Assembly: GCA_903877885.1 (NCBI GenBank)
Contig: CAIRFN010000005.1
Coordinates: forward strand, 17,956 to 81,955
Length of the DNA: 64,000 nucleotides
From: an uncultured Candidatus Berkelbacteria bacterium
GTDB lineage: Bacteria > Patescibacteriota > UBA1384 > UBA12157
Reading direction: 5' to 3'
Part shown: piece after piece, positions 8,400-61,859 of the stretch
How positions within the stretch are numbered: position 1 is the stretch's first letter
Layout: every line of letters starts with the position of its first letter
The notes under the pieces: generated by a model
Database searches by the model: none
Seen by the model: the letters and a program-made list of their open reading frames with translations, nothing else
What the model was told of the DNA's origin: nothing
Program-made: the position numbers and the translations under genes

Positions 8400-8834
8400 A
8401 TGCGAATTGAAATTGACCAAAGCGGAAAATTGGAAGACACACATAAACCTACTGTTGTGGGATTCTCGAATAGTACCAGCAAAACTGTGATTATTTTAGC
8501 AACCGAAAAGCAAAAATTGCAGAAATTTTTCCGCAATATTGGTAAACCAAATGTTTACCGTTACAAAACATTCGCTATCATGATTTTTCTCTTACTAGAG
8601 CACAAGCATTTGTCTCAAATAATTATTGATACCGAATATGTCGGTCAAGAAGCTGTAATCAAAAATTATTTGTTAGAACTATTCCGGAAAACCCGTAAAA
8701 ATTTGCTTAAAAATGTAATTATCTTTAAACAAATCGGCAAGAAATCACAAGCTCATATTGTGTCATACAATGCTTATAGGACCAAAAAAGCTGATCTTAA
8801 AATTTGCGCTAAAGATATTGAAAAATTTGTATAA
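8400..8834 (+). CDS. Hypothetical protein (144 aa)
   Basis: Intact ORF. No family recognised. Confidence 0.4.
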   Translation: MRIEIDQSGKLEDTHKPTVVGFSNSTSKTVIILATEKQKLQKFFRNIGKPNVYRYKTFAIMIFLLLEHKHLSQIIIDTEYVGQEAVIKNYLLELFRKTRKNLLKNVIIFKQIGKKSQAHIVSYNAYRTKKADLKICAKDIEKFV

Positions 8835-8969
8835 AAAAAGATCGAGTGTTTAATGAATATTTAAGGCTGGCCTAGCCCTCGATTTTCATCGAAGCGCCAT
8901 ACGGTCGATATCCCACCCGATTCTTGATTATATTATACTTTTAAATTTGATTTTTGTCAAGCTCAAAAA

Positions 8970-10127
8970 CTAGTTCTGTACTTTGCTTTTTTGCCAGTCG
9001 CGGATTTTTTGAATCACTTCATGACCACGAGTTTCGAGACTTTCACCAGCTAAATTGAAAGCCGCGGCGGCTTCGTGACCGCCGCCGCCAAATAATCTGG
9101 CGATAGCAGAAACGTCAACTCCGGCGCGAGCGGCCCGGAATGAGCCATGAAGACCATCATTTTTTTCAGAAAGTAACATCGCAAAATCAATGTTTGGCGC
9201 AGTTTTTAAGAGTTCATCTAAAACACCCGAAGAGGCCGAATCATCAGCGCCAGCATCTGCAAAATCTTGGCGCTTGATTGCCGACCAAATAAATTTGGAT
9301 TGAGCTTCGTCGTGAACATTTTCCAAAACTCGACCCCAAAGTTTTAAGGTAGATAAAGTTTTGGTTTTGAAAATCCATTTGATAATTTCTTGCTGTCTGG
9401 CTCCGGCGGCTACCAATTGCGCCGCCACAGTAAAAGATTTTGGGGTTGTATTAGCATTTTGAAAACTGCCGGTGTCGACAATAATACCGGTTAACAAAGC
9501 AGTGGCCACATCAACATCAAGCAAAGGTTTTTCGCGGCTAAGTGATTCAACCAAAGCGACCAAAATTTCCGCGGTCGAGGTTGCGGTTAAATCCACCCAG
9601 TTAACCTTACCAAAATAATCATTACCCGGGTGATGATCAATATTAACCACTGGAGTTTCATAAAATAAATCTGTATTTTTGTCGTAAATTGTGCCAAGTC
9701 GATCTAAATCTGGCGCATCCAAAACCACAATCAAATCATATTTAAACGCGCCTTGAGAGAAAGTCACATCTTCAGGTCGAAATGAACCGTTAATTGGAGT
9801 TATGACCACATTCAATTTATTTTCTTCTGGCAAATTTTTGTAAGATAATTTATCAACTTTAATTTTACTGGTATTAACCGAAATGATAAAATCTTTTGTA
9901 CCTGAAAAATTTGAACTTAAGTTTTCTTTACCAGGCAAAAATCGCAAATTTTCTGGTAAAACTTCAGAAGTCACGGCTGTCACTTCTTTGCCGAGTTTTT
10001 TGAGTACCAAAGACAGAGCAATCATTGAGCCCAAAGCATCACCATCTGGGTTGACATGGCTTAAAATCAAAACACGCTGTGCAGAACGCAACAATTCAAT
10101 TGTTTGCTGTTTGGGAGTTAATTCCAC
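8970..10127 (-). CDS. nrnA: DHH/DHHA1 phosphoesterase (NrnA-like oligoribonuclease and pAp phosphatase)
   Basis: 385 aa. N-terminal HVNPDGDALGS DHH motif and C-terminal GGGH DHHA1 motif. Confidence 0.85.
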   Translation of the reverse strand: MELTPKQQTIELLRSAQRVLILSHVNPDGDALGSMIALSLVLKKLGKEVTAVTSEVLPENLRFLPGKENLSSNFSGTKDFIISVNTSKIKVDKLSYKNLPEENKLNVVITPINGSFRPEDVTFSQGAFKYDLIVVLDAPDLDRLGTIYDKNTDLFYETPVVNIDHHPGNDYFGKVNWVDLTATSTAEILVALVESLSREKPLLDVDVATALLTGIIVDTGSFQNANTTPKSFTVAAQLVAAGARQQEIIKWIFKTKTLSTLKLWGRVLENVHDEAQSKFIWSAIKRQDFADAGADDSASSGVLDELLKTAPNIDFAMLLSEKNDGLHGSFRAARAGVDVSAIARLFGGGGHEAAAAFNLAGESLETRGHEVIQKIRDWQKSKVQN

Positions 10128-11344: not shown

Positions 11345-11372
11345 AAAATAGTATCTGGTGTACAGAGTAACA

Positions 11373-11408
11373 AAGGACAGTCCTTAAACGCGTAAAAGGA
11401 CTGTCCTT
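11373..11408. repeat. REP-like palindromic element (aaggacagtcctt arms), copy 1
   Basis: aaggacagtcctt-aaacgcgtaa-aaggactgtcctt followed by tttt. Located between the convergent genes lepB and 11469..12995. Confidence 0.8.
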
Positions 11409-11468
11409 TTAAATTATAGATCGCCACGGTCTGCTGACCTCGCGATGACAATTTTTTTAGATCTATCT

Positions 11469-12995: not shown

Positions 12996-13145
12996 TGATT
13001 CCCCTCCGCTCATCCATGACCTATGGATATTATGTAGTTGAGCGCCCTCCGAATCTACACTGTCAGTAGAGGACGAAGCCCCTTTGACAGTAAAGATGTA
13101 GGATGGGCTATTTACCATTATAACAAAATTTCTAACTTTAAGCGA

Positions 13146-15637: not shown

Positions 15638-15691
15638 CCAACACGCGGTGGCCTCCACCGCTTTTTAAATTCTGGCAATCTTCTAACAAAT

Positions 15692-15727
15692 AAGGACAGT
15701 CCTTCAGCGCGTTAAAGGACTGTCCTT
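15692..15727. repeat. REP-like palindromic element, copy 2
   Basis: aaggacagtcctt-cagcgcgtta-aaggactgtcctt followed by ttt. Located just after the fabH-like gene. Confidence 0.8.
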
Positions 15728-15735
15728 TTATTCTT

Positions 15736-15826
15736 TGTCATCCTCGAGCCGGAGGGTACTCCGACATCAAGGATCCAGAAAATTCCTGGATCCCAGATCC
15801 TGAAGCCTTCCAATCTGGGATGACAT
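15736..15826. repeat. Family-A MITE-like element, intergenic copy
   Basis: tgtcatcctcgagccggagggtactccgacatcaaggatccag + aaaattc + ctggatcccagatcctgaagccttccaatctgggatgaca. Confidence 0.8.
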
Positions 15827-17533: not shown

Positions 17534-17911
17534 TTACGGTAAATGACTTTTAGAGCTTTTAATTAAACCGGTTAATAATTTATGAACTATAACTGTTTTG
17601 TTAGCTAAATCAATAAAAATTTTGTTATCAATGTAGCCTATATCTCGCGCGATTAATAACTGATTCTGGAGCTCAGCTACAGAACCTTGAGAAATAGCAT
17701 AAAATTGGATTTTATCTTTATATGATTGACGACAAAATCCCTCGGCAATATTTGAGGTGATTGAGACTGCACATCTTTGAATTTGATTTGTTAAACTAAA
17801 AATTTCGCTTTTAGGAAAATTTTTTGCCGCTTTATATATCCCTAAAACAAGTTCATGCCCTGTTTGCCACGCGTTTAAATCTGTGAATGATTTAATCGAT
17901 TTCCCTTCCAT
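17534..17911 (-). CDS. Four-helix-bundle protein (23S rRNA intervening-sequence protein family)
   Basis: 125 aa. Characteristic ..AWQ..HELV..IYK..FPK.E...L..Q..R...S...NIAEG.. pattern. Confidence 0.8.
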   Translation of the reverse strand: MEGKSIKSFTDLNAWQTGHELVLGIYKAAKNFPKSEIFSLTNQIQRCAVSITSNIAEGFCRQSYKDKIQFYAISQGSVAELQNQLLIARDIGYIDNKIFIDLANKTVIVHKLLTGLIKSSKSHLP

Positions 17912-20246: not shown

Positions 20247-21482
20247 ATGATGAAAGAAAAAATGAAAATATTAGCCATTGAATCAAGTTGTGACGAAACC
20301 GCGGCCGCCGTTATTGAAAATAATAACGGTGAGATTAAGATACATTCAAACATAATTTCTAGTCAAATTGATATTCACAAACAATTTGGTGGCGTTTTTC
20401 CCGAAATTGCTTCGCGTGCTCATGCCGAAAATATTATTCCGGTGATTAAAGAATCTTTAATTAATAGTATTGATGATGTCGATCTAATCGCTGTCACTGA
20501 CGGACCAGGTTTAATCGGTTCGCTTTTGGTTGGCGTCAATGTAGCCAAAACCTTGAGTTTCGCAAATAATATTCCGATCTTACCAATCAACCACTGGCTT
20601 GGTCATATCTATTCCTGTTTTACCGATGATAAAAATTTACCTCGATTCCCTCTTCTCGCCCTTATTGTTTCCGGTGGTCATACTGGTTTGGTGTTGATGA
20701 AAAGTCATACCGAGTACATTCAAATCGGCGCTACACTTGATGACGCCGCTGGCGAAGCTTTTGATAAAGTAGCAAAACTCTTAGAATTAGGTTATCCTGG
20801 CGGACCGGCGATTTCAGCTGCGGCTGAAGAATATAAAAAAGAATGTCATTCCGGTCCAGATGGTAATACTGGAACCGGAATCCAGGCCTGGATTCCCGAT
20901 GTCGAGTTGCCACTCGGCTCGAGAATGACAATTTCCTTTCCGAGAGCCATGCTTAATTCTAAAGATTATAATTTAATGTCAATTAAATTTCCGCGGGCCA
21001 TGATGCAATCAGGGAACTATAATTTCTCATTTTCAGGGTTAAAAACTTCTGTACTAAACAAAGTTCGAACTTTAACTGAAAATTGGAAATTGAGAACTGA
21101 AAATTTTGCCCCCGTAGTTGCCTATGAATTTCAACAATGCGTCATTGATATTTTAATTGGTAAAACTTTGAAAGCGGCTGAAGAATTTAAGCCAAAATCA
21201 ATTCTTCTTTGCGGCGGCGTTTCAGCAAATAAGGAATTAAGAGAACAAATGAAAAAAGCTATTTTGTCATTCCGGACCCCTCCTGTCATTCCGGACCGGT
21301 TGGCAACAGGATCCGGAATCCAGGAAAAAACGAATGACAAGATTAATTTTTTCTGTCCGCCCATCGAATTAACCGGCGATAACGCGGCCATGATCGGTAT
21401 TGCCGCAGCCTATCAAATCAACGCTGGCGTTAAACCAACTACATATAATAATGTAAATGCGAACTCAAATTTGAAATTGTAA
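20247..21482 (+). CDS. tsaD: tRNA N6-adenosine threonylcarbamoyltransferase TsaD (Kae1/Gcp family)
   Basis: (M)KILAIESSCDETAAAVIEN.. N-terminus with the His metal site. At 411 aa it is longer than typical, because of two in-frame element insertions plus a 17-codon tandem duplication. An alternative start exists at the ATG at 20262. Confidence 0.9.
   Translation: MMKEKMKILAIESSCDETAAAVIENNNGEIKIHSNIISSQIDIHKQFGGVFPEIASRAHAENIIPVIKESLINSIDDVDLIAVTDGPGLIGSLLVGVNVAKTLSFANNIPILPINHWLGHIYSCFTDDKNLPRFPLLALIVSGGHTGLVLMKSHTEYIQIGATLDDAAGEAFDKVAKLLELGYPGGPAISAAAEEYKKECHSGPDGNTGTGIQAWIPDVELPLGSRMTISFPRAMLNSKDYNLMSIKFPRAMMQSGNYNFSFSGLKTSVLNKVRTLTENWKLRTENFAPVVAYEFQQCVIDILIGKTLKAAEEFKPKSILLCGGVSANKELREQMKKAILSFRTPPVIPDRLATGSGIQEKTNDKINFFCPPIELTGDNAAMIGIAAAYQINAGVKPTTYNNVNANSNLKL
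20844..20930. repeat. Family-A MITE-like element in frame in tsaD (copy 1)
   Basis: tgtcattccggtccagatggtaatactggaaccggaatccag gc ctggattcccgatgtcgagttgccactcggctcgagaatgaca. Translated as ..CHSGPDGNTGTGIQAWIPDVELPLGSRMT.. Confidence 0.8.
21263..21340. repeat. Family-A MITE-like element in frame in tsaD (copy 2, with a duplicated left terminus)
   Basis: ttgtcattccggacccctcc tgtcattccggaccggttggcaacaggatccggaatccag gaaaaaacgaatgacaa. Translated as ..ILSFRTPPVIPDRLATGSGIQEKTNDK.. Confidence 0.75.
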
Positions 21483-21489
21483 CCTTAAT

Positions 21490-21880
21490 GTACACCCTGG
21501 AAGTGTACATTGGTTTGAACTAATATAAAGAGAACGCCCCTGGCAAGCCAGGGGCGGTAGGAAAGATGGATAGGGATTGGGAAAGAAAAGAATGAAAAGT
21601 AGGCGTTGCGATGCCTCGAGTGATGAAGAGATGTGCTAGACTTAGAACGAGTGGACAGATGCGGTCTGAACGAAGCCTTCTTGCGAAGGACAAGTGAACG
21701 TAGAGCCCTAAGGCTCGGACAGTGATGGTCTAGGCGGCAGCCCGAAATGCTGGCGAGTCGCAACCGAGAACACCAAAGAGGTGTCGAACATGACAAAGCA
21801 ACGCCTTATAAATATCGTAGTTCTCACTAAAACCTTTGTCAAGACCTTAAAAATCTGATAAGATAAAATAAATTAATGAG
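21490..21880. ncRNA. Candidate structured non-coding RNA in a GC-rich block with many tetraloop hairpins, between tsaD and valS
   Basis: No plausible ORF on either strand; the only long frame is S/R/L-rich junk. Hairpins at tgtacaccctggaagtgtaca, cccctggcaagccagggg, gccttcttgcgaaggc and gagccctaaggctc. GC is clearly elevated against the flanks. Identity unknown. Confidence 0.3.
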
Positions 21881-21888
21881 AAAATATT

Positions 21889-24039
21889 ATGCAAGAATTA
21901 CCATCAAATTACAATTATAAAGAAACTGAAGACAAAATTTATGCGCTGTGGGAAGAAGCCGGCGCGTTTAAACCAGTTATTGATCCTAATCAAAAACCAT
22001 ATACGATTGTGATTCCGCCACCAAATGTGACTGGTTCTCTTCATATGGGTCATGCTTTAAATAACACAATTCAAGATATTTTAATTCGTCGCTCTCGGAT
22101 GCGTGGCGTGCCAACTCTATGGATTCCCGGAACTGATCATGCCGGTATTGCTACTCAAAATGTGGTGGAAAAAAAGTTGGCTAAAGAAGGCAAAACTCGT
22201 CAAGAACTTGGGCGCGAAGAGTTCACCAAAGAAGTTTGGGATTGGGTTGATCAATATGGCAACACTATTATTGGACAGCTCAAGAAAATGGGTTGTTCTT
22301 GCGATTGGTCCAGACAGCGTTTTACCATGGATGAAGGCTATTCAGAAGCGGTTAAAGTCGCGTTCAAAAATTACTATGATAAGGGTTATATTTATCAAGG
22401 TGAACGAGTGATCAACTGGTGTACCCGTTGTCAAACTGCCTTATCTGATATCGAAGTCGAACATATTGATCAAAACGCTAAACTATATTTTTTTAAATAT
22501 GATAAAAATTTTCCGATCACCATTGCCACTACGCGACCAGAGACAAAGCTTGGCGATACAGGTGTAGCGGTCAATCCGAAAGACAAAAGATATCAGGATT
22601 ACATTGGTAAAACTTTCAAGGTTAATTTTTGCGGTGTCGACCGCGAGATTCGGGTTTTTGCTGACATTAGTATTGATATAACCTTTGGCACTGGCGCCGT
22701 CGGAGTCACTCCAGCGCATTCTTTGGTTGACTATGAAATGGCCGAAAAAAATGGCTTGGATATTATTAAAGTGATTGATCAATATGGGAAAATGACCAAA
22801 GAAGCGGGAACAGAATTTGAAGGTTTGAAAGCAACTGAAGCGCAAGCCAAAGTCATCGAAATGTTGGAAAAAGCTGGGCTGATGGAAAAAGTGGAAGAAA
22901 TCCAAAACGCGATCAGTGTGTGTTATCGCTGTAATCGACCGATTGAGCCTCAACCGTCAAAACAATGGTTTTTAAAGATGTCGGAATTAGCAAAACCAGC
23001 GATTGAAGCGGTTAAATCTGGTCAAATTAAATTCACACCAGACCGTTGGACCAAAGTTTATTTAGACTGGATGGAAAATTTGCGCGACTGGTGCATTTCT
23101 CGCCAAATCTGGTGGGGGCACACCATTCCAATTGAAGGCGAAACTGATGTTTTGGACACTTGGTTTTCGTCAGCCTTGTGGCCGTTTGCCACACTTGGTT
23201 GGCCCAATAAAACTGAAGACCTAAAATATTTTTATCCGACCACCACACTTTCCACTGCCCGCGATATTATTTATCTGTGGGTGGCACGAATGATTTTTTC
23301 AGGGCTTGAATTTACCAACGAAATTCCATTTTCACAGGTTTATATTCATCCAACGGTTTTCAATAAAGAAGGTAAACGCATGTCCAAATCTTTGGGCACC
23401 GGCGTCGATCCTTTGGAACTGATCGAGAAATACGGTGCCGATGCCACGCGATTTGGTCTTACCTATATTAATACCGGGATTCAAGATTTGAAATTTGACG
23501 AAGAAGCTATTGGTGCTGGCAAAAAATTTGCCAATAAGTTGTGGAATATCACCAGATTCATGTTGATGAGCATTTGTCATTCCGGTCCGGATGGCTCCGG
23601 AACCGGAATCCAGGAAAATGATAATCTGGATTCCAGATCAGGTTGCCAACCAGTCTGGAATGACAAGATGGAACCAAGAACTGAAGCCGATAAAATCATT
23701 CTTGAAAAACTTAATGCCGTTATTAAATCAACTGACAAAAATCTTGATGAATTTAAATTTGGCCAAGCGGCGCATGATTTGTATGATTTCGTCTGGCACG
23801 ATTTGGCCGACGTATATATAGAAGAAAGCAAAGTGACCGCGAACGGTCATCCCGAGCCGAAGTCCGGCGAGGGAACCCCTGATTTTTCAGTATTACTTTA
23901 TGTAATAGTAACTTCGATTAAACTTTTGCACCCGATTATGCCGTTTGTAACAGAAGAAATCTGGCAAAAACTCTACGAAGATAAATTAGTTGATGAAAGA
24001 ATGCTGATTACGGCAAAATGGCCAAAAGCACAAGAATAG
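21889..24039 (+). CDS. valS: Valyl-tRNA synthetase (compact form)
   Basis: PPPNVTGSLHMGHAL HIGH region, KMSKS (GKRMSKSLG) and anticodon-binding region. Carries an in-frame family-A element at 23575-23665. Confidence 0.9.
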   Translation: MQELPSNYNYKETEDKIYALWEEAGAFKPVIDPNQKPYTIVIPPPNVTGSLHMGHALNNTIQDILIRRSRMRGVPTLWIPGTDHAGIATQNVVEKKLAKEGKTRQELGREEFTKEVWDWVDQYGNTIIGQLKKMGCSCDWSRQRFTMDEGYSEAVKVAFKNYYDKGYIYQGERVINWCTRCQTALSDIEVEHIDQNAKLYFFKYDKNFPITIATTRPETKLGDTGVAVNPKDKRYQDYIGKTFKVNFCGVDREIRVFADISIDITFGTGAVGVTPAHSLVDYEMAEKNGLDIIKVIDQYGKMTKEAGTEFEGLKATEAQAKVIEMLEKAGLMEKVEEIQNAISVCYRCNRPIEPQPSKQWFLKMSELAKPAIEAVKSGQIKFTPDRWTKVYLDWMENLRDWCISRQIWWGHTIPIEGETDVLDTWFSSALWPFATLGWPNKTEDLKYFYPTTTLSTARDIIYLWVARMIFSGLEFTNEIPFSQVYIHPTVFNKEGKRMSKSLGTGVDPLELIEKYGADATRFGLTYINTGIQDLKFDEEAIGAGKKFANKLWNITRFMLMSICHSGPDGSGTGIQENDNLDSRSGCQPVWNDKMEPRTEADKIILEKLNAVIKSTDKNLDEFKFGQAAHDLYDFVWHDLADVYIEESKVTANGHPEPKSGEGTPDFSVLLYVIVTSIKLLHPIMPFVTEEIWQKLYEDKLVDERMLITAKWPKAQE
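23575..23665. repeat. Family-A MITE-like element in frame in valS
   Basis: tgtcattccggtccggatggctccggaaccggaatccag...ctggattccagatcaggttgccaaccagtctggaatgaca. Translated as ..CHSGPDGSGTGIQENDNLDSRSGCQPVWNDK.. Confidence 0.8.
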
Positions 24040-24068: not shown

Positions 24069-24074
24069 TTTCTT

Positions 24075-24451
24075 TGTCATTCCAGACCGGCCGGAGGCAG
24101 GATCTGGAATCCAGAATAAAATGAATAATTATTATGTGTATATTTTGACTAGCAGAAGAAACGGCACTTTATATATTGGCGTAACTAATGATCTGATTAA
24201 AAGAATATGGGAACATAAAAACCATAGTAAAAAAGGATTTACAGAAAAATATAACATTTGCCAATTGATATACTTTGAGCAAACTAATAATATAAACTCC
24301 GCTATTAATAGAGAAAAACAATTAAAATCATGGAATAGAAAATGGAAACTTGACTTAATTGAGAAAGTCAATCCTGATTGGAAAGATTTATATCAAGAAT
24401 TGTTGTAACTGGATTCCCGATGTCGGATGCCATCCGACTCGAGAATGACAA
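24075..24451 (+). mobile_element. Full-length family-A element carrying a GIY-YIG nuclease ORF between its two terminal modules
   Basis: Left module tgtcattccagaccggccggaggcaggatctggaatccag (24075-24114). ORF 24121-24408. Right module ctggattcccgatgtcggatgccatccgactcgagaatgaca (24410-24451). The short MITE copies (e.g. 38811-38904) are these two modules joined directly. Confidence 0.75.
24121..24408 (+). CDS. GIY-YIG nuclease family protein (UPF0213/YhbQ-like, about 95 aa)
   Basis: ..YYVYILTSRRNGTLYIGVTNDLIKRIWEHKN.. with the GIY...YIG motifs. The start is trimmed to the ATG at 24121. The track frame is open from 24061 through the left terminal module. Confidence 0.85.
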   Translation: MNNYYVYILTSRRNGTLYIGVTNDLIKRIWEHKNHSKKGFTEKYNICQLIYFEQTNNINSAINREKQLKSWNRKWKLDLIEKVNPDWKDLYQELL

Positions 24452-32296: not shown

Positions 32297-32311
32297 AAAT
32301 ACTTAAAAATA

Positions 32312-32348
32312 GATTCCGGATCCTGTCGCCAACCGGTCCGGAATGACA
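32312..32348. repeat. Family-A solo half-module
   Basis: gattccggatcctgtcgccaaccggtccggaatgaca. Confidence 0.65.
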
Positions 32349-32355
32349 TTTGACG

Positions 32356-37741: not shown

Positions 37742-37752
37742 ATACAGACCAA

Positions 37753-37788
37753 AAGGACAGTCCTTCAGCGCGTTAAAGGACTGTCCTT
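37753..37788. repeat. REP-like palindromic element, copy 3
   Basis: aaggacagtcctt-cagcgcgtta-aaggactgtcctt tt. It is followed by a ttgataccagatacc motif. Confidence 0.8.
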
Positions 37789-37839
37789 TTGGATAATCTG
37801 ACACTTGATACCAGATACCAAATGCTATATACTTGACCC

Positions 37840-38793: not shown

Positions 38794-38810
38794 AATTTAT
38801 AACTGTAGAC

Positions 38811-38904
38811 TGTCATTCCAGACCGGACGGCGTCAGGATCTGGAATCTAGGATAATTGTTTCTGGATTCCCGATGTCGGATTGCCATCCGACTCGGGAAT
38901 GACA
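38811..38904. repeat. Family-A MITE-like element, intergenic reference copy
   Basis: tgtcattccagaccggacggcgtcaggatctggaatctag gataattgttt ctggattcccgatgtcggattgccatccgactcgggaatgaca. The whole element is a long imperfect palindrome. Confidence 0.85.
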
Positions 38905-38921
38905 AAGAAAAATATAACAAA

Positions 38922-40070
38922 TTATTTATTAACTTCTTTCTTCAGTTCTTCCACTTTATCCGTTCTCTCCCAAGGTAAATCTAATTCTGGTCTACCGAAA
39001 TGGCCATAGGCGGCAATTTTTTGGTAGATTGGTTTTCGAAGATCTAAGGCTTGGATAATCATCCCTGGTCGTAAATCAAAAACTTTACTCACCGCTTGAG
39101 CGATTTTATCGTCTTCAATGGTGCCAGTACCAAACGTATCAATTCGCACCGACATTGGTTCAGCTCGACCGATGGCATAAGCAATCTGCACTTCACAGCG
39201 TTCGGCTAATTTTGCGGCAACGATATTCTTGGCCACCCATCTGGCCGCATAGCTACCCGACCGATCAACTTTACTCGGATCTTTTCCAGAGAAACAACCG
39301 CCACCGTGACGCGCATAGCCACCATAAGTATCAACAATAATTTTGCGGCCGGTCAGTCCAGTATCACCTTGCGGCCCACCAATCACAAACCGACCGGTGG
39401 TGTTGACATAGTAGTTTGTATTTTGAAGCAAGGATTTAGGGATAACTTTTTCAATTACTTTCTCGATAATTTCTTTTTTTAAGATCGATGTTTTAATATT
39501 TTCATCATGTTGTGCCGCAATTAAAACCGATTCGATGCGGACTGGTTTGTCGCCATCATATTCAACTGTAACCTGGCTTTTGCCGTCTGGTCGCAAGCCT
39601 TTGACAATCCCCTTTTTTCGAACTTCAGCCAAGCGTTGGCAAAGTTTGTGAGCCAAAACAATTGGCAAAGGCATTAATTCTTTGGTTTCGCGACAAGCAT
39701 AACCAAACATCAAACCTTGATCACCGGCGCCTAGATTTTCCAAGTCTTCGACCAAAGGACAGTCCTTTTGTTCCTTTAAGGACTGTCCTTTACTAAACGC
39801 ATCAACACCCTGTGCAATATCGGCTGATTGTTCCTTAACCGCCACCATTACACCGGAAGTTTCCCAGTGAAAACCATATTCGGCATTTGTATAGCCAATT
39901 TGTTTAATGACGTTGCGAGCGATTTTCGGAATATCGACATATGTTTTAGTGGTAATTTCTCCAGCGATAATACAAACGCCGTTGGTCAGCAATGTTTCGC
40001 AAGCGACTCGTCCTTGCGGATCGTCAGTTAAAATTGCATCGAGTACCGCATCACTAATCTGATCAGCCAT
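38922..40070 (-). CDS. metK: S-adenosylmethionine synthetase
   Basis: [35 protein letters not shown] and the rest of the canonical MetK sequence. Carries an in-frame REP-like insertion at 39765-39800 (..[17 protein letters not shown]..). Confidence 0.95.
39765..39800. repeat. REP-like palindromic element inserted in frame inside metK
   Basis: aaggacagtcctt-ttgttccttt-aaggactgtcctt. It adds about 12-16 residues relative to the conserved MetK loop before GAGDQG. Confidence 0.8.
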
Positions 40071-40183
40071 TTTGTCAAGGATGCCCTTCAGTAACAGATT
40101 CTGATGTAAAGAATTTATTCATAGGACTATCTCCTTTCTAGAGCATAAAGCTTCCTCATATTTTTTATATTTATCTAATTTTT

Positions 40184-40277
40184 TGTCATTCCAGACCGGA
40201 TGGCATCAGGATCTGGAATCCAGAGTTAATTATTTCTGGATTCTTGATGTCGGAGTACCCTCCGGCTCGAGAATGAC
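40184..40277. repeat. Family-A MITE-like element in the metK 5' leader, between the riboswitch terminator and the start codon
   Basis: tgtcattccagaccggatggcatcaggatctggaatccag...ctggattcttgatgtcggagtaccctccggctcgagaatgaca. Confidence 0.8.
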
Positions 40278-40292
40278 ATAAAAAAACAAAAA

Positions 40293-40412
40293 TCACCGCA
40301 AGCGGTGAAATATATAAAAACATCTTTCCCGCAAGGGGTCGGAGGTAGCACCTAAATTAATGGGTTGCTGGTGGATCATCGGGCCGAATCCCTCACCACA
40401 CTCTTGATATTA
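40293..40412 (-). ncRNA. SAM-I (S-box) riboswitch with an intrinsic terminator, upstream of metK
   Basis: Minus-strand read: AUCAAGAGUGUGGUGAGGGAUUCGGCCCGAUGAUCCACCAGCAACC...GGUGCUACCUCCGAC. This matches the conserved SAM-I core AGAGnGGnGGAGGGAnnGGCCCGAUGAnnCCnnGCAACC...GGUGCUA. It is followed by a terminator tcaccgcttgcggtga plus a T-run at 40280-40308. Confidence 0.8.
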
Positions 40413-40528
40413 AAATTAATTTTTAACTAAATTTATCATATTATAACCATCTAACTTTTGTCAAACTCTTGCCTGGAAACAATTTTTGCTTTAAGATGTA
40501 AATATTAAATTTATATTTTAGGAGCAAA

Positions 40529-45136: not shown

Positions 45137-45527
45137 TGTCATCCTCGAGCCGGTTTGAGCTTTGTCGAAAACCGACATCAAGGATCCATCAAAATAAAAA
45201 GCTATTTCGTTTACATTTTAGCCAGTCAGAAAAACGGAACATTATATATCGGTGTTACAAATGATATTATAAGAAGGATTTGGGAGCACAAAAATAAAGC
45301 TATTCAAGGTTTTACAGATAAATATAGAATTGATAAATTAGTTTATTTCGAAGAAACACCAGATATTAATTCAGCTATTAAGAGAGAAAAACAATTAAAA
45401 TTATGGAGCCGTTCCTGGAAAATAGATTTGATAGAAAAGAATAATCCTGATTGGAAAGATTTATATCAAGATTTGTTATAATGGATCCTTGATGTTGGAG
45501 CGCTTCGCTTCCAACTCGAGGATGACA
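45137..45527 (+). mobile_element. Second full-length family-A element carrying a GIY-YIG ORF between its terminal modules, inserted between atpA and atpG
   Basis: Left module tgtcatcctcgagccggtttgagctttgtcgaaaaccgacatcaaggatcca. ORF to 45481. Right module tggatccttgatgttggagcgcttcgcttccaactcgaggatgaca. Confidence 0.75.
45155..45481 (+). CDS. GIY-YIG nuclease family protein (second copy)
   Basis: ..YFVYILASQKNGTLYIGVTNDIIRRIWEHKN..REKQLKLWSRSWK.. The frame is open from a TTG inside the left terminal module. There is no ATG near the conserved N-terminus, so the start is uncertain. Confidence 0.75.
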   Translation: MSFVENRHQGSIKIKSYFVYILASQKNGTLYIGVTNDIIRRIWEHKNKAIQGFTDKYRIDKLVYFEETPDINSAIKREKQLKLWSRSWKIDLIEKNNPDWKDLYQDLL

Positions 45528-46025: not shown

Positions 46026-47066
46026 ATGCCAAGTACACAAGAATTTCGTAGAAGAATTAAATCGGTCAGTTCGACCAAACAGATTACCAAAGCAATGGAA
46101 ATGATTGCTTCTATTAAGATGCAAAAATCTGTCAAAACTATTGCCCAGGCTCGAGCCTATATCCAAAACGCATGGAATATTTTACATTTACTGTCTGAAA
46201 AAATATTAAGCGACGATCACGCGCTGATTAATCCTAAAGATCATGCCAAAAAAACAGCCGTGATTTTAATTACTTCTGACCGCGGTTTATGCGGTTCATA
46301 TAATTCAGAAGTGATCAAGAAGCTAACATCATTCAAAAATGTCATCCTCGAGACGGAGGGTACTCCGACATCAAGGATCCAGGACCTGGATTCCAGATCT
46401 GGTTCCCAACCAGTCTGGAATGACAATACGATTGATATCATTGCCATCGGTAAAGTCGGCGCCGCGTTTGTTAACAGATATAAAATCGGCAAACTGATCG
46501 CTGAATTTAAAGGTTTTGAAAATAATATTTCCGTTGAAGATGTCATTCCGATTTCCAAACTGACGAATGGTGAATATATGGCTGGAAATTATGACAAAGT
46601 GGTAGTGATTTATTCTCATTTCATTTCTTCGCTTAAACAAGTCCCGGTCGTCAAACAAATTTTGCCAATTGTCGAAGATCATATCGATCATCCGGAATTA
46701 TGGGAAGGAAATAATGTCATCCTCGAGCCGGAGGGTACTCCGACATCAAGGATCCAGGACCTGGATTCCCGATCCGGAGGCCATCCGGTCGAGAATGACA
46801 AAAACAATACTGAATACAAATTTGAACCCAATCCTGATGAAGTTTTTGATGGCGTCTTGCGACAAATTTTACGCACCCAAATTTTCGGTGCCATTTTAGA
46901 AGCCAACGCTTCTGAACATTCGGCCCGTATGGTGGCCATGAAAAATGCCACCGACAATGCCACCGATTTAGTTGATGAATTAAAATTAGTATATAACAGC
47001 ATCCGCCAAGGAAACATCACTTCGGAAATCGCCGAAATTAGTGGTGCCGCCGAGGCGATGAAATAA
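46026..47066 (+). CDS. atpG: F0F1 ATP synthase subunit gamma (lengthened by two in-frame MITE insertions)
   Basis: Conserved N-terminus (..RRRIKSVSSTKQITKAMEMIASIKMQK..) and C-terminus (..NSIRQGNITSEIAEISGAAEAM). At 346 aa it is longer than typical. Confidence 0.9.
   Translation: MPSTQEFRRRIKSVSSTKQITKAMEMIASIKMQKSVKTIAQARAYIQNAWNILHLLSEKILSDDHALINPKDHAKKTAVILITSDRGLCGSYNSEVIKKLTSFKNVILETEGTPTSRIQDLDSRSGSQPVWNDNTIDIIAIGKVGAAFVNRYKIGKLIAEFKGFENNISVEDVIPISKLTNGEYMAGNYDKVVVIYSHFISSLKQVPVVKQILPIVEDHIDHPELWEGNNVILEPEGTPTSRIQDLDSRSGGHPVENDKNNTEYKFEPNPDEVFDGVLRQILRTQIFGAILEANASEHSARMVAMKNATDNATDLVDELKLVYNSIRQGNITSEIAEISGAAEAMK
46340..46425. repeat. Family-A MITE-like element in frame in atpG (copy 1)
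   Basis: tgtcatcctcgagacggagggtactccgacatcaaggatccag gac ctggattccagatctggttcccaaccagtctggaatgaca. Translated as ..VILETEGTPTSRIQDLDSRSGSQPVWND.. Confidence 0.8.
46715..46800. repeat. Family-A MITE-like element in frame in atpG (copy 2)
   Basis: tgtcatcctcgagccggagggtactccgacatcaaggatccag gac ctggattcccgatccggaggccatccggtcgagaatgaca. Translated as ..VILEPEGTPTSRIQDLDSRSGGHPVEND.. Confidence 0.8.
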
Positions 47067-49238: not shown

Positions 49239-49558
49239 AAATATTTTTATTTAGACCAAAAAATGTCACCAAAATATCCCCTACTCATATCGTTCGAGCC
49301 AGCAGGCGAGAACTATTTCACCAACTGTCAATTCCTAATAACTTATGATTTAAGGTCAAAATTTTAAATCAAGGTGATTTTTCGGCTGTCACGCCAAATT
49401 GTCGCATTTTCGCTATTTTGATATCATCACTCTCGATTTATAACCTGATATTTGAATTACAATTATTTTTCTGATTTTTTATTATTTTCATCATTTTTTC
49501 ATTTTTTTTAAAAATCAAAAAAATCAATTTTTTTAATATTTTTTTACTCTTCCTCTAC

Positions 49559-49649
49559 TGTCATTCTCGACCGGACGGCCTCCGGATCGGGAATCTAGAA
49601 ATATAATCCTGGATCCCAGATCCTGTTTGACAACCGGTCTGGGATGACA
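49559..49649. repeat. Family-A MITE-like element, intergenic
   Basis: tgtcattctcgaccggacggcctccggatcgggaatctag...cctggatcccagatcctgtttgacaaccggtctgggatgaca. Confidence 0.8.
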
Positions 49650-50401: not shown

Positions 50402-50516
50402 GCCCATCCTTCATCTTTACTGTGCAACCGACTCCGTCGTGTACGCACAGTGCAGATTGCGGAGGGCGACATCCTATCATATTTTTTAAATAAATGAGTG
50501 TCGGAGGGGTATAGTG
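50402..50516 (+). promoter_or_regulatory. Conserved ~115-nt 5' leader element, copy A, upstream of the T4SS-like operon
   Basis: About 80% identical to the reverse complement of 62448-62558. Both end in gtgtcggagggg, which is the SD, plus a start codon. It contains the cggagggcgaca / tgtcggagggg complementarity. Confidence 0.5.
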
Positions 50517-50552
50517 CAGTTTCAAGTACCACAAAATATGGTCAAGCTATAA
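50514..50552 (+). other. 12-codon decoy ORF (VQFQVPQNMVKL*) that duplicates the RBS and the first 8 codons of the gene at 50647
   Basis: ggaggggtataGTGcagtttcaagtaccacaaaat at 50503 matches ggaggggtataGTGcaatttcaagtaccgcaaaat at 50636. Confidence 0.45.
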
Positions 50553-50646
50553 CTATCATATTTTAAGGTAGCTTGCCGCGGAATTTTGCGGATAGCTAAA
50601 CGAAAATTTTTCCAAAAATATAGATTACTAATCACGGAGGGGTATA

Positions 50647-51150
50647 GTGCAATTTCAAGTACCGCAAAATATAGATCTCGAAGACAAGATTGTCGGGCCA
50701 TTGACCTTGACGCAGTTTTTGTATGTCTTAGGCGGCGGCCTTGTTGATTACATTATGTTTCAATCTTTTGCCGCTAATTATTTTGGGCTTTTTCTGGTTC
50801 TTGGTATCCCAGTCGCTTTACTTGCTTTAGGATTAGCTTTTTTTAAAGTCCAAGAACAGCCTTTGTCACATTTTATCACAGTTGGAATTTTATATTTATT
50901 TAAACCAAAAACTAGACTATGGAAAAGAGAAGAAAGCTATCCAACAGTTCTAACTGAACCAACAAAAAAAGAAAAAAAGGAAAATGAAAATGTGGCAATT
51001 CCAAAACATCATCTTGAAAAAAGTGAGCTGGAACAATTAGCCTACAAATTAGATACTTTTCAAGTAGATACGCCGGTTGAAGAAAAGAAAAAATTTGGCG
51101 CAGTTTCCGCCGCTTTCGAACAATTATTGAAGGAAGATAAAAAGAAGTAA
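50647..51150 (+). CDS. Small 2-TM protein, VirB3-like / PrgI-like component of Gram-positive-type T4SS (tentative)
   Basis: 167 aa. GTG start after GGAGGGG. Hydrophobic hairpin LYVLGGGLVDYIMF...LVLGIPVALLALGLAFF followed by a charged tail. First gene of the operon that contains VirB4. Confidence 0.45.
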   Translation: MQFQVPQNIDLEDKIVGPLTLTQFLYVLGGGLVDYIMFQSFAANYFGLFLVLGIPVALLALGLAFFKVQEQPLSHFITVGILYLFKPKTRLWKREESYPTVLTEPTKKEKKENENVAIPKHHLEKSELEQLAYKLDTFQVDTPVEEKKKFGAVSAAFEQLLKEDKKK

Positions 51151-51163
51151 CCAGGAGGGGATC

Positions 51164-51865
51164 TTGGCTCAACAAAAACCGCCACAACCAAAACCGATTG
51201 TCAGCACCCAAAGTTTTTTGGCTTTTTCTGAAGTCCACGAGGGAATTATAATTACTAAAAATGGTGAACTCCGAGCGATTTTAATGGCCAGCTCGATTAA
51301 CTTTTCCTTAAAATCCGAACAGGAACAAACGGCTATTGTTTATGCTTATCAAAATTTTCTTAACTCCCTATCTTTTCCTGTTCAAATTATGATGCAATCG
51401 CGCAAACTTGATCTAACAAAATATATTGCCAAACTTAAAGAGATTGCCAAAGTTCAGGGCAACGAATTATTGCGCGGCCAAACCATTGATTATATTTATT
51501 ACATCGAACGATTAGTTAAAGTCGCCAATATTATGGATAAAAAGTTTTATGTTGTTATTCCTTTTATGCCGCCTTCCACGACCCAAATTAAACCTTCTGC
51601 TGGTTTATTTGGTAATAAAAAAGAAGCTAGCGGCCCTAAAATTACACCGAAGGATTTTGAAAAATATCAAACCGAAATTTTACAGAGACTTCAAGTAATT
51701 CAATCTGGTTTAGGTTCAATTGGAGTCCGTACAGCGCAACTTAATACCCAACAAATTGTCGAGTTGATGTACGGTATTTATAACCCAGAAGAAGCGGAAA
51801 AAGAAAAATTAATCAATTTTAATCATCTAAATTCTGATTTAGTCGAAAGCGAAGTCGAAAAATGA
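51164..51865 (+). CDS. VirB4/TraC-family N-terminal domain encoded as a separate ORF
   Basis: ..FSEVHEGIIITKNGELRAILMASSINFSLKSEQEQTAIVYAYQNFLNSLSFPVQIMMQSRKLDL.. matches the N-terminal domain of conjugative VirB4-type ATPases. Its stop overlaps the next ATG (ATGA). Confidence 0.6.
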   Translation: MAQQKPPQPKPIVSTQSFLAFSEVHEGIIITKNGELRAILMASSINFSLKSEQEQTAIVYAYQNFLNSLSFPVQIMMQSRKLDLTKYIAKLKEIAKVQGNELLRGQTIDYIYYIERLVKVANIMDKKFYVVIPFMPPSTTQIKPSAGLFGNKKEASGPKITPKDFEKYQTEILQRLQVIQSGLGSIGVRTAQLNTQQIVELMYGIYNPEEAEKEKLINFNHLNSDLVESEVEK

Positions 51866-53685
51866 ATAATCAAAATCAACCACAATCAATACCAACGCCA
51901 ACACAAAATAAATTACCTGCCGGTGTTTCTCAAGGTATGAACTCGGTTTTTGATCTAATTGCCCCGCCGTCATTTGAGGCTAAACCAAATTATCTAAAAA
52001 TCGGTGGCATTTTTACTCGAACTCTGTTTGTATTCACTTATCCTCGCTTTGTCCAAACCAACTGGTTAAGTCCGATTATCAACTACGATATTACAATGGA
52101 TATTTCCATGTTTATTCACCCAATCGGATCTAAAGAAACCATGGATACTCTCAAGAAAAAAGCAGCTCAACTCGAATCGAGCGAACAAATTGATGCGGAA
52201 AAGGGCATGGTTCGCGATCCGGAACGCCAAACTGCTATTTCCGATATTGAAAATTTACGCGATACTTTGCAGCGCGGCGAAATGAAATTATTCCAATACG
52301 CGCTTTATTTTACCATTTACGCTCAAAGCGAGGATGAATTAAACACTATTACCGAGCAATTAGAGTCAACCTTGGGTGGCATGTTGATTTATACCAAACA
52401 AGCGCTATTGCAAATGGAACAAGGTTTTAATTCCACTATTCCGCTTTTTCTTGATCAGCTAAATATTCTTCGCAATCTGGACACTGCTTCGCTTTCCACC
52501 ACTTTTCCATTTACTTCTTCAACATTAAGTTCGAATGATGGTATTCTCTACGGCATTAATCGCCATAACAATTCTTTGATTTTGTTTGACCGATTCAAAT
52601 TAGAAAATGCTAATTCTGTTGTTTTTGCTAAATCCGGTTCCGGTAAATCGTATACAATTAAACTGGAAGCTCTTCGATCATTGATGCTCGGTACCGATAT
52701 TATTGTGATCGACCCGGAAAATGAATATAAAGCCTTGTGCGAAGCGGTTGGTGGTAATTACTTGAATATTTCCATCAACTCCGATAAACGAATTAACCCG
52801 TTTGATTTGCCGGTGGCTGGTGTGGGTTTACAAAACGATGCCACTGGTGAAGATATTTTAAGAAGTAATATTACAACTTTACAGGGTTTGATTTCTTTAA
52901 TGCTTGGCGAAATGACTCAAGATGAAGACGCGATTTTGGAAAAGGCTTTATATGCCACTTACGCCTTGCGCGATATCACCGCCGACCCTAATACTCAAAG
53001 AAATAAGCCACCGGTTCTAGCCGATCTTCAATCAATTTTGGCTGACACAACCGGCGCTGATAGTATGGTCAAACGTTTAGAGCGATACACTAATGGTACA
53101 TTTCGAGGTTTATTTGATCAACCAACCAACTTTGATTTAGGCGGCGGCATGACTGTTTTTAGTGTCAGAGATTTGGAAGACGCGCTTCGGCCGATTGGCA
53201 TGTATATGGCTCTGAACTATATTTGGCAAAGAGTTCGTTTTAATGTCAAAAAACGAATTATGATTATTGATGAAGCCTGGTGGATGATGCAATACGAAGA
53301 TTCTGGTAAATTTCTTTATGCTTTAGCTAAACGCGGTCGTAAATATTTCCTTGGTTTAACCATTATTTCTCAAGATGTAGAAGATTTCATTGGTAGTAAA
53401 TATGGCCGTGCCGTGGTCAACAACTCTTCAATGCAAATTTTAATGAAGCAAAACCCGGCATCAGTCGATAAAATTGCTTCGATTTTCGGTTTAACTGAAG
53501 GTGAAAAGTTTATGTTACTTGAATGCGAAGTTGGTGAAGGTTTATTCTTTGCCGGACTCAATCATGTGGCTATCAAAGTCGTTGCCAGTTATTCTGAAGA
53601 CCAATTAATCACCACTAACCCGCAAGAAATTCTCGAACAACAAGCAAAAGCTAAAGAAGAAAAAGCTGCGGCCGAAACAAATTAA
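51862..53685 (+). CDS. VirB4-family conjugal transfer / type IV secretion ATPase (ATPase domain)
   Basis: Walker A VVFAKSGSGKSYT, Walker B MIIDEAWWMM and a TrbE/CagE-like C-terminal region. Confidence 0.8.
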   Translation: MNNQNQPQSIPTPTQNKLPAGVSQGMNSVFDLIAPPSFEAKPNYLKIGGIFTRTLFVFTYPRFVQTNWLSPIINYDITMDISMFIHPIGSKETMDTLKKKAAQLESSEQIDAEKGMVRDPERQTAISDIENLRDTLQRGEMKLFQYALYFTIYAQSEDELNTITEQLESTLGGMLIYTKQALLQMEQGFNSTIPLFLDQLNILRNLDTASLSTTFPFTSSTLSSNDGILYGINRHNNSLILFDRFKLENANSVVFAKSGSGKSYTIKLEALRSLMLGTDIIVIDPENEYKALCEAVGGNYLNISINSDKRINPFDLPVAGVGLQNDATGEDILRSNITTLQGLISLMLGEMTQDEDAILEKALYATYALRDITADPNTQRNKPPVLADLQSILADTTGADSMVKRLERYTNGTFRGLFDQPTNFDLGGGMTVFSVRDLEDALRPIGMYMALNYIWQRVRFNVKKRIMIIDEAWWMMQYEDSGKFLYALAKRGRKYFLGLTIISQDVEDFIGSKYGRAVVNNSSMQILMKQNPASVDKIASIFGLTEGEKFMLLECEVGEGLFFAGLNHVAIKVVASYSEDQLITTNPQEILEQQAKAKEEKAAAETN

Positions 53686-53687
53686 TT

Positions 53688-54941
53688 TTGTTTATTATGA
53701 TCAACCAAACGGTAAATAAACTAAAAGCCCTTAAGAATCGTAAAGGCGCGATTGGGATTATTATTGCTATTTGTATAGTAATTTTTCTTTTGATTCTCTT
53801 AATCGCTTTTGCCGCCGCTATAATTGGTAGTCACCAGGGCGCAAATTCTACCGGCGGATTAATCACTGGTACTGATACCGGAGGTTGCACTGGTGGGAAA
53901 TTACCACAAAGCGTTTTAGATCTTATTAATCAAAACAAACCGGTTTATCAGGCCGCAGCCAAAGCCGAAGGAATTGATTGGGAAATGTTGGCTGCGGTTC
54001 ATTATCGCGAAGCGACCAATAACCCCAACGGATCGTTGATGAGTGGTGAAAAAATTGGAACAGTAAATCCGGATAATGGTAAAACTTACAATACTTTATA
54101 CGATAGCGCAGTCGCCGCCGCTCAATCTTTAAAATCCCGTGTTAATGGTCTAAGAGTTGGTTCAGATAGTGACACAATTAAAAAGGCTTTTTTGGGACAT
54201 AATCGAGGTGACAGATATACAAAAGGTGGATGTAGTCTTGATTCTTCACCATATGTTATGAATCAATTTGATGCTGCCCATACAAATATGGCTTATCCAT
54301 CAAATCTAATTTGCGAACCAAAAAGTACTGCCGGAAGAACCGAAACAAAACTTGGCGCTTTCACTGTTTACTCAATCTTAAAAGGCAATATTGCTGGTAG
54401 TGCTACTTGCACCCAAACGAGCGGACCAGCCGCCACAGGTAGTTGCGCTGATATTTTGCCAGCCGCGGAAAAATATTTCGGACTAAATTATTCACAAGCT
54501 AGTCACTGTGGCCCAAATACAATCGGACCAGCTGGTGTAACTGCTGTTGATTGTTCTGGTTATGTTTCCAGGGTTTATCGTGATATTGGTATCGCATCAA
54601 AAAACTGGTGTACAAGAACCGCAACTATACCTAACGATTCCACTTTAGTCTTAATTACAAACGATCTTTCTAGGGCACCACAATTAGCTCAACAGGGCGA
54701 TTTAATCTTAACCGGAAGTCACGTCGTTATCTATGTTAACAATAATACTGTTTATGCTTCTCGCGGCGAAACAGCCGGTGGCCCACAAAAGGAGACTGTT
54801 AGAAGTGGTGTTTGGAATGTCAAAAACCTCGCAGCCACTCATGGTTGGGTCGGACTTTATCGGGCCAAGGCCTGCACACTCCAACAACCAGCCGCCTTAA
54901 TTCAATCGGCTGTAAATAATGCCTTAAAGGTGAAAAAATGA
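53688..54941 (+). CDS. Membrane-anchored cell-wall hydrolase with a C-terminal NlpC/P60 (Cys-His) peptidase domain, possibly a VirB1-functional analogue
   Basis: N-terminal TM. C-terminal DCSGYVSRVY (catalytic Cys) ... GDLILTGSHVVIYV (His). Confidence 0.6.
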   Translation: MFIMINQTVNKLKALKNRKGAIGIIIAICIVIFLLILLIAFAAAIIGSHQGANSTGGLITGTDTGGCTGGKLPQSVLDLINQNKPVYQAAAKAEGIDWEMLAAVHYREATNNPNGSLMSGEKIGTVNPDNGKTYNTLYDSAVAAAQSLKSRVNGLRVGSDSDTIKKAFLGHNRGDRYTKGGCSLDSSPYVMNQFDAAHTNMAYPSNLICEPKSTAGRTETKLGAFTVYSILKGNIAGSATCTQTSGPAATGSCADILPAAEKYFGLNYSQASHCGPNTIGPAGVTAVDCSGYVSRVYRDIGIASKNWCTRTATIPNDSTLVLITNDLSRAPQLAQQGDLILTGSHVVIYVNNNTVYASRGETAGGPQKETVRSGVWNVKNLAATHGWVGLYRAKACTLQQPAALIQSAVNNALKVKK

Positions 54942-61437: not shown

Positions 61438-61460
61438 AAAGTAGACGGTATCCGACAATA

Positions 61461-61495
61461 AAGGACTGTCCTTCAACGCGCTAAAGGACAGTCCT
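61461..61495. repeat. REP-like palindromic element, copy 5
   Basis: aaggactgtcctt-caacgcgcta-aaggacagtcctt tttt. Followed by atacttgatactaaatcctaaatactagatac. Confidence 0.8.
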
Positions 61496-61540
61496 TTTTA
61501 AATACTTGATACTAAATCCTAAATACTAGATACTAATTTT

Positions 61541-61813: not shown

Positions 61814-61823
61814 CTTTACCTAA

Positions 61824-61859
61824 AAGGACAGTCCTTCAGCGCGTTAAAGGACTGTCCTT
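61824..61859. repeat. REP-like palindromic element, copy 6
   Basis: aaggacagtcctt-cagcgcgtta-aaggactgtcctt t. Located between convergent genes. Confidence 0.8.

Follow-up and report, generated by a model that had tools for sequence, protein, structure and literature searches.

The DNA analyzed here is a stretch of 64,000 nucleotides (nt) (hereafter, the window) from a Berkelbacteria-like host within the candidate phyla radiation (CPR), and the element in question is the spacer that separates its tsaD and valS genes, the identities of both TsaD and ValS having been confirmed with Pfam. The tsaD stop codon occupies positions 21480-21482 and the valS ATG stands at 21889, leaving 406 nt (21483-21888) between them. 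An earlier inspection without database searches (the sequence-only reading) had marked nearly all of this spacer as a GC-rich, non-coding block with multiple tetraloop hairpins, and had proposed a novel large RNA, a ribozyme, or a foreign fragment. The features located or predicted in the spacer are given below in window coordinates, with lengths in nt or base pairs (bp).

21483-21888, no strand assigned: the whole tsaD-valS spacer, 406 nt, non-coding and absent from all relatives
21487-21511, no strand assigned: AU-rich hairpin of 9 bp, AAUGUACAC-CCUGGAA-GUGUACAUU, immediately 3' of the tsaD stop codon
21525-21556, minus strand: intrinsic-terminator-like site, CGCCCCUGG-CUUG-CCAGGGGCG followed by UUCUCUUUAU, with a hairpin of 9 bp (8 GC)
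21557-21600, minus strand: G-free, CU-rich stretch UACUUUUCAUUCUUUUCUUUCCCAAUCCCUAUCCAUCUUUCCUAC of 44 nt with two UCCC motifs, predicted to be single-stranded
21601-21807, minus strand: predicted 5' domain of an RNA, with a 9-bp closing helix that joins 21806-21798 to 21609-21601
21770-21784, about 21733-21761, 21703-21716 (loop UUAG), 21676-21689 (loop GCAA), and 21656-21668, minus strand: hairpins inside the closing helix
21814-21819, minus strand: predicted -10 hexamer TACGAT, 17 nt after the -35
21837-21842, minus strand: predicted -35 hexamer TTGACA, which with its flanks (21836-21843) reads CTTGACAA, an extended -35 motif typical of this genome
21836-21864, plus strand: valS promoter, with a -35-like TTGTCA and an extended -10, TGATAAGAT (21856-21864)

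Our data show that this block is real and truly non-coding, which bears out the first claim of the sequence-only reading. The public gene calls for identical contigs place no gene in the spacer. Its longest open frame (21485-21796, minus strand) spans 103 amino acids (aa), a length that is unremarkable because the minus strand is pyrimidine-rich and 13% of dinucleotide shuffles of the block give at least 106 stop-free codons. The codon log-likelihood of this frame is -0.43 per codon versus +0.38 ± 0.12 for the real genes of the window, and the 3-base periodicity expected of genes is absent from the block (signal of 0.97 versus 4.8 ± 2.4). The frame has no Pfam match and a single, marginal match (E = 5e-4) among 1.84 billion representative proteins, and no residual protein similarity was found for the block in any frame. 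None of the marks of a protein-coding gene or pseudogene (i.e., codon bias, 3-base periodicity, and protein similarity) is therefore seen here, and the block is intergenic with no credible open reading frame, as a stand-alone small RNA (sRNA) gene would be.

The composition of the block had been described as clearly richer in GC than its flanks. GC is indeed raised, reaching 52-54% in 21540-21800 compared with an average of 40% for the window (standard deviation, 6.7), with 45% across the entire spacer, but the excess is moderate rather than extreme, ranking in about the top 3% of 200-nt windows. The most unusual compositional trait is the purine excess of the plus strand (0.67, within the top 0.4% of windows), and a C-free tract of 48 nt lies on that strand at 21556-21603. 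An internal tandem repeat was considered and rejected, as GGACAG..GGTCT alone was found twice and forms no array, for which reason a CRISPR-like or TIGR-like array was rejected as well. A replication origin was also discarded, given that the GC skew tracks the local gene strand only and that DnaA boxes are not clustered.

The comparison of the tsaD-valS junction across relatives drew on species-representative genomes for 80 valS loci and on metagenomes for 34 tsaD loci, together with DNA from two of the three closest TsaD relatives. The best ValS matches, which are 66-68% identical, come from one genome each of Patescibacteria and Candidatus Berkelbacteria, and the nearest TsaD among 5.8 billion proteins is 59-60% identical. 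In about 20 Berkelbacteria-like relatives the order of tsaD followed by valS is kept, with a spacer that ranges from 23 nt to 3.1 kb. The loci compared in this respect were L006, L085-L113, L120, and L121. The shortest spacers, of 23-30 nt, occur in L087, L093, L094, L102, and L108, and the longer ones carry unrelated cargo: HicB/HicA in L105, L106, and L113; a four-helix protein of the 23S-rRNA-IVP type in L086; small zinc-ribbon-like proteins, encoded on the minus strand, in L006/L085 (where Pfam support is weak) and in L111 and L120 (by cysteine pattern only); and further small proteins of unknown type elsewhere. Collectively, this comparison identifies the junction as a hot spot of insertion in Berkelbacteria-like genomes. 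The window itself encodes, at 17534-17911 on the minus strand and 3.5 kb upstream of the block, a 23S-rRNA-intervening-sequence or bAvd-like four-helix protein, the same family that forms the cargo of the L086 spacer; no reverse transcriptase was found among the 20 open reading frames scanned between 11.5 and 36 kb.

Part of the spacer appears in nearly all relatives. An extended -10 of the form TGATA(A/G)(G/A)AT (TGATAAGAT or TGATAGAAT) stands shortly upstream of the valS ATG in nearly all of them, the positions compared being 21856-21864 of the window and those of L087, L093, L094, L100, L102-L104, L108, and L113, and the comparison marks this element as the ancestral part of the spacer. The window retains it at 21856-21864, which places the insert upstream of the valS -10 and downstream of the tsaD stop codon. 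In the short-spacer relatives, the extended -10 is only ~7-8 nt ahead of the ATG, a spacing that implies a valS mRNA with no leader or almost none, and the last tsaD codons form TTGAA(A/G) roughly at the -35 position. In several other genes of the window, e.g., those starting at 20217 (minus strand), 46026 (plus strand), and 57614 (minus strand), the ATG is likewise immediately preceded by a -10-like hexamer, and a Shine-Dalgarno sequence is lacking.

Several relatives have a second promoter at this junction, pointing the other way. Minus-strand promoters of the form CTTGAC(A/T)-17-TAnnnT lie 45-105 nt from the valS ATG in L006, L096, L099, L111, L113, and L120, and four of these loci (L006, L099, L111, and L120) show, downstream of the promoter, a Shine-Dalgarno sequence and then the 5' end of a cargo gene on the minus strand. 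All cargo promoters examined on this strand are arranged back to back with the extended -10 promoter of valS, and L120 has, in addition, a GC-rich hairpin adjoining the tsaD stop codon with a T-tract on the minus strand. The block resembles these cassettes in several respects: it occupies the same insertion site in the same orientation as the minus-strand ones, its predicted promoter is back to back with the valS extended -10 and has the same kind of CTTGAC -35, and, as in L120, a GC-rich hairpin faces tsaD. It differs from them in having no open reading frame, a much higher GC content, and no sequence similarity. As the block is a lineage-specific insertion, the "foreign fragment" of the sequence-only reading is a fair description in the sense of hot-spot cargo.

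The signals for transcription, as predicted from motifs, lie on the minus strand and not on the strand that had been read earlier. TTGACA-17-TACGAT scores 10 of 12 as a minus-strand promoter, and its -35 overlaps the plus-strand TTGTCA at 21836-21841. The extended motif CTTGACAA occurs nine times in the window, where 2.2 copies are expected, and about seven of the nine stand just upstream of a gene on the same strand, as judged from the map of open reading frames. From the promoter spacing, RNA synthesis would start near 21807, 7 nt after the -10. The 5' arm of the closing helix begins 1-2 nt after this predicted start site, and the helix closes a domain of 206 nt with five short hairpins; beyond it, the CU-rich stretch pairs in neither the minimum-energy nor the centroid fold. 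The terminator-like site at 21556-21525 is the first-listed and strongest of 26 such sites in a 20-kb scan and belongs to a group of about nine strong, perfect sites of the hairpin-plus-T-tract type in the 64-kb window; the strong sites checked on the map follow a gene on the same strand, whereas this one has no protein gene upstream. The block thus shows the arrangement expected of a stand-alone sRNA gene, namely a promoter and a Rho-independent terminator on one strand and 50-500 nt apart (21842..21814 and 21556..21525, minus), both as motif predictions. Elsewhere in the window, a perfect consensus promoter (TTGACA-17-TATAAT) lies on the minus strand at 8932-8960, within the gap 8834-8970; it aims into the 3' end of the plus-strand gene 8400-8834, has no minus-strand gene downstream, and may drive another orphan or antisense transcript.

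The hairpins of the block point in the same direction. The four stems quoted in the sequence-only reading were located at 21487-21511, 21535-21556, 21676-21689, and 21703-21716, and perfect stems of at least 5 bp with 4-nt loops are enriched about 10-fold (3 versus 0.27 expected; 2 of 1,000 shuffles). The stems had been credited with GNRA- or UNCG-like loops, and in this the description does not hold, as the plus-strand loops read CCUGGAA (7 nt), CAAG, UUGC, and CUAA, with no GNRA and no UNCG. Of the three tetraloops, two belong to stable classes on the minus strand, G(CUUG)C and C(GCAA)G, and none does on the plus strand. The AU-rich hairpin at 21487-21511 may be a weak terminator of tsaD or a second hairpin beyond the end of the small RNA.

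As a whole, the fold is less distinctive. The entire block has a z score of -3 to -3.9, owing mainly to the two strong hairpins adjoining tsaD, and the 206-nt core is not clearly better folded than its shuffles on either strand (z of -1.3 on the plus strand and -1.9 on the minus strand). Neither mark of a structured RNA or ribozyme, i.e., a fold that beats shuffles and pairs that covary, is thus found, and the large plus-strand structured RNA or ribozyme proposed earlier is not borne out by stability. The copies available for a covariation analysis are all clonal, and the comparative alignment recommended by the sequence-only reading found no homologue in any relative; the conservation on which that proposal had partly been made to depend is lacking. 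On balance, the observation in that reading is partly confirmed and its interpretation partly supported.

Given these results, we tentatively propose, with somewhat less than even confidence, that the block is an orphan, lineage-specific cargo unit that makes a minus-strand small RNA of ~280 nt. The cargo would have entered a recombination hot spot downstream of the tsaD stop codon and upstream of the extended -10 promoter of valS, and would form an independent minus-strand transcription unit that yields this RNA and no protein. Transcription would start near 21807 from the CTTGACAA-17-TACGAT promoter, back to back with that of valS. The RNA would consist of a multi-hairpin 5' domain of ~205 nt, whose 9-bp closing helix begins 1-2 nt past the predicted start site, followed by the 44-nt G-free, CU-rich stretch, predicted to be unpaired and proposed as the base-pairing region by virtue of its two UCCC motifs, and would end at the strong Rho-independent terminator 21556-21525. 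We infer that the exposed CU-rich/UCCC stretch could act by pairing with purine-rich ribosome-binding sites (GGAG/GGGA) of target mRNAs. In addition, the minus-strand promoter and the valS promoter may compete, because their -35 elements overlap. What is observed is that the block is non-coding, that it is an insertion, that it carries the promoter and terminator motifs, and that it parallels the cargo cassettes of relatives; the transcription, ends, and function of the RNA are inferred. The GC content of the block (52-54%, compared with 30-42% in those spacers of relatives that hold inserted protein genes) also argues for an RNA gene.

A close parallel is with trans-encoded bacterial small RNAs whose seed regions are C-rich (UCCC) and unpaired, such as RsaA, RsaC, RsaE, RsaG, and RsaH, together with RNAIII, of Staphylococcus aureus; for the Rsa RNAs, the binding of unpaired UCCC motifs to Shine-Dalgarno sequences has been documented (PMC2790875). 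Like them, the block stands alone between genes, and it is predicted to combine a sigma-70-type promoter with a structured 5' part, an unpaired C/U-rich stretch with UCCC motifs, and a Rho-independent terminator; moreover, many Shine-Dalgarno sites here are of the GGAG/GGGA type and could pair with the CU-rich stretch. However, the block has no homology to them in sequence or structure, is not conserved even among related genomes, and does not pair with start regions of the window better than shuffled sequences do, and ~280 nt exceeds the length of most of those RNAs.

A number of results weigh against an sRNA gene. No homologue of the block was found by blastn, nhmmer, or tblastx in 121 loci (0.85 Mb), nor by a single-sequence covariance model in the window and 51 of those loci; no similar sequence turned up in phage and plasmid collections, and three pattern scans of viral contigs returned one chance match adjoining tRNA genes and two empty results. 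The block sequence recurs in several metagenome assemblies with 0-1 difference in 2-6 kb, the copies in four other assemblies being identical or separated by 1 SNP in 5 kb; these clonal copies give no support for function through conservation or covariation. A stand-alone sRNA would be expected to be conserved in related genomes, and this one is not, the nearest TsaD relative being at most 60% identical. As for the promoter, the TACGAT -10 has no TG extension of the kind found in the good promoters of this genome and is weaker than the other promoters of the window, and the minus-strand -35 is possibly a by-product, because it is the reverse complement of the valS -35-like TTGTCAAG. The fold of the minus-strand core is marginal (8 of 200 shuffles fold equally well), and its unpaired bases (U, 39; C, 32; A, 17; G, 8) are atypical of a structured RNA, the A/G-rich composition usual for such RNAs sitting on the plus strand. 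Pairing of the CU-rich stretch to 56 start regions of the window was no better than that of its shuffled versions. Finally, the promoter and the terminator could both be leftovers of a lost protein cargo.

This last point leads to the alternative that survives best, namely that the block is a functionless remnant of a former minus-strand cargo cassette or of foreign DNA, in which the promoter and terminator survive and any transcript is incidental. We regard this as rather unlikely on the whole, though with a substantial chance of being correct. It would account well for the setting, given a spacer that varies from 23 nt to 3.1 kb with unrelated cargo in ~20 relatives, minus-strand cargo promoters beside valS in several of these, a terminator hairpin beside tsaD in L120, and the confinement of the block to one clonal population. 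The weak -10 and a core fold not clearly above chance also suit a remnant, and after the promoter the block reads AUAAGGCG...AUG, loosely like the AUAAGGAGG...AUG cargo leaders of L111 and L099. However, protein similarity is lacking in every frame, as is 3-base periodicity. The 54% GC and the C-rich sense strand are unlike the cargo genes of relatives (30-42% GC), the latter feature being opposite to the purine-rich coding-strand bias of the window's own genes, and decay in an AT-rich genome is expected to lower the GC content, not to raise it. The ~10-fold enrichment of hairpins over shuffles and the retention of a strong, intact terminator with a perfect 8-nt -35 likewise argue against decay.

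An unlikely alternative places the function on the plus strand, as a structured RNA carried on the tsaD transcript (in its 3' untranslated region or between the two cistrons) and perhaps processed or acting on valS. The core composition of this strand (A, 29%; G, 32%; C, 22%; U, 16.5%) is typical of structured RNAs, with unpaired bases that are mostly A and G, and its ensemble is the better defined one (centroid of -58.9 versus a minimum of -64.7 kcal/mol). Transcription could read through from tsaD, because the two hairpins that follow this gene have no plus-strand U-tract, and tsaD and valS are merely 23-30 nt apart in short-spacer relatives. Against this, the plus strand has no promoter upstream of the block and no terminator after it, and the conserved valS promoter TGATAAGAT lies downstream, so that the block is outside the normal valS leader. 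The fold reaches a z of only -1.3, none of its loops is of a stable tetraloop class, neither a T-box nor any other leader family was matched at E ≤ 10, and no homologue was found upstream of valS in relatives. A T-box leader in particular was rejected, as RF00230 gave no match at E ≤ 10, the valS promoter is downstream of the block, and the plus strand has no terminator.

Still more improbable, in our view, is a bolder form of the sRNA proposal, in which the block would be an RNA-only cargo gene of a new kind, structured and transcribed on its own, that does the job of the HicAB-like protein cassettes at this site (e.g., an RNA-only toxin-antitoxin or defense module, or the founder of an undescribed class of CPR structured RNAs).

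A divergent member of a known family (RNase P, 6S, SRP, tmRNA, T-box, or an intron fragment) that escapes the Rfam models in this deeply branching lineage is very improbable. The sequence-only reading had been unable to match RNase P, tmRNA, SRP, or 6S by eye, and the Rfam/Infernal scan that it recommended agrees. Using Rfam 15 at gathering thresholds over the whole window, with models for these RNAs as well as for T-boxes, riboswitches, ribozymes, introns, GOLLD/ROOL/HEARO/OLE/raiA, and others, no family was matched in 21483-21888. At E ≤ 10 with permissive filters, 21300-22000 gave only unrelated noise (13.7-18.7 bits, compared with gathering thresholds of 35-88), and ARAGORN detected no tRNA or tmRNA gene in the entire window. 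The one resemblance noted by eye is a long-range helix in which GAAAAGU-helix ... ACAAAG-helix-UUAU loosely recalls P4 of RNase P RNA (bacterial type A), a region that reads GGAAAGU... / ACAGAA...CUUAU in the M1 RNA of Escherichia coli, with a hairpin before it at a P3-like place. This resemblance was rejected: the helices of the block are nested and do not form the P2/P4 pseudoknot, the 188 nt enclosed hold none of the other conserved RNase P regions, the block is too short, and no model matches it. An essential RNA should, moreover, recur in relatives, and none was found at or near the locus. The literature on known structured RNAs of this lineage yielded nothing relevant. The sole Rfam match of the window is a SAM riboswitch (RF00162; 57.6 bits) at 40317-40413 on the minus strand, upstream of the minus-strand gene 38922-40070 and with a promoter-like site at 40464-40435.

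Hardly credible, finally, is a small protein (the 103-aa minus-strand frame, a 27-aa minus-strand peptide from the ATG at 21791, or a 22-aa plus-strand peptide at 21790-21858, which could form a type I toxin-antitoxin-like pair with an antisense RNA). In its favor, a good ribosome-binding site (GAGGUG, 6-nt spacer) precedes the plus-strand ATG at 21790, the predicted 5' end of the minus-strand RNA would be complementary to the region of this ATG, and relatives carry HicAB toxin-antitoxin cargo at the same site. However, codon usage, periodicity, and homology all speak against the 103-aa frame, which also crosses the terminator hairpin; the 22-aa peptide has neither a hydrophobic stretch of transmembrane length nor a promoter of its own; and public annotations call no gene in any of these frames. 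The 3' half of the 22-aa peptide is, in fact, conserved valS promoter DNA, where L006 reads a different frame of 12 aa, and we judged its roles as a leader peptide or type I toxin to be unsupported.

To our knowledge, there is essentially no sRNA biology for the CPR, and the minus-strand RNA, if real, would be among the very few candidate regulatory sRNAs proposed for this group. It would also mean that the hot-spot cassettes of these reduced genomes can carry RNA genes besides small protein modules. The importance of the element is modest, since it is a non-conserved orphan in a single clonal population; the tsaD-valS hot-spot context is useful independently of the sRNA interpretation.

The window also hosts several repeat families. 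The block is not one of them: a dispersed repeat (of the repetitive extragenic palindrome or miniature inverted-repeat transposable element type) was rejected, as the block is present in a single copy, without a paralogue, across the window and a further ~7 kb upstream of it, and has no similarity to the palindromic families of the window. These families comprise palindromic repeats of ~40-50 nt (TGTCATTCCrGACCGG...GGATCyGGAATCCAG and relatives) that are scattered through the window. Two of them lie inside the genes that border the block, at 21279-21329 in tsaD and 23626-23666 in valS; both reading frames are uninterrupted, so the repeats appear to be translated in frame, which recalls the palindromic elements of Rickettsia. 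The range of TsaD lengths in the lineage, from 315 to 513 aa, fits such in-frame palindromic insertions. About 15 further sites were found, e.g., at 13618, 15736-15826, 24070-24120, 32309-32349, and 38806-38917, and also at 40179-40291, 46335-46426, 46710-46801, and 49554-49604. A small gene with a GIY-YIG domain is present in two copies that are 72% identical (24118-24408 and 45191-45481), both of which are flanked by palindromic repeats, as read from the repeat coordinates.

A hairpin repeat of 46 nt (AAAGGACAGTCCTT...AAGGACTGTCCTTT) occurs at six sites in both orientations, mostly between genes according to the map of open reading frames, and may represent terminator-type repeats. The sites are as follows.

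11372-11417: 46-nt hairpin repeat
15691-15736: 46-nt hairpin repeat
37752-37797: 46-nt hairpin repeat
39754-39799: 46-nt hairpin repeat
61460-61505: 46-nt hairpin repeat
61823-61868: 46-nt hairpin repeat

In addition, a repeat of ~90 nt is found in three places, partly inverted (50402-50493, 62466-62557, and 13052-13109), and a direct repeat of 38 nt has copies that are 95% identical at 50502-50539 and 50635-50672; ARAGORN detected no tRNA at either of these repeats. The region 50647-55954 holds a cluster that resembles a type IV secretion or conjugation system, the members of which, according to precomputed Pfam hits for an identical contig, include PrgI, a TraC-like protein, a TraG-type P-loop ATPase, and NlpC/P60.

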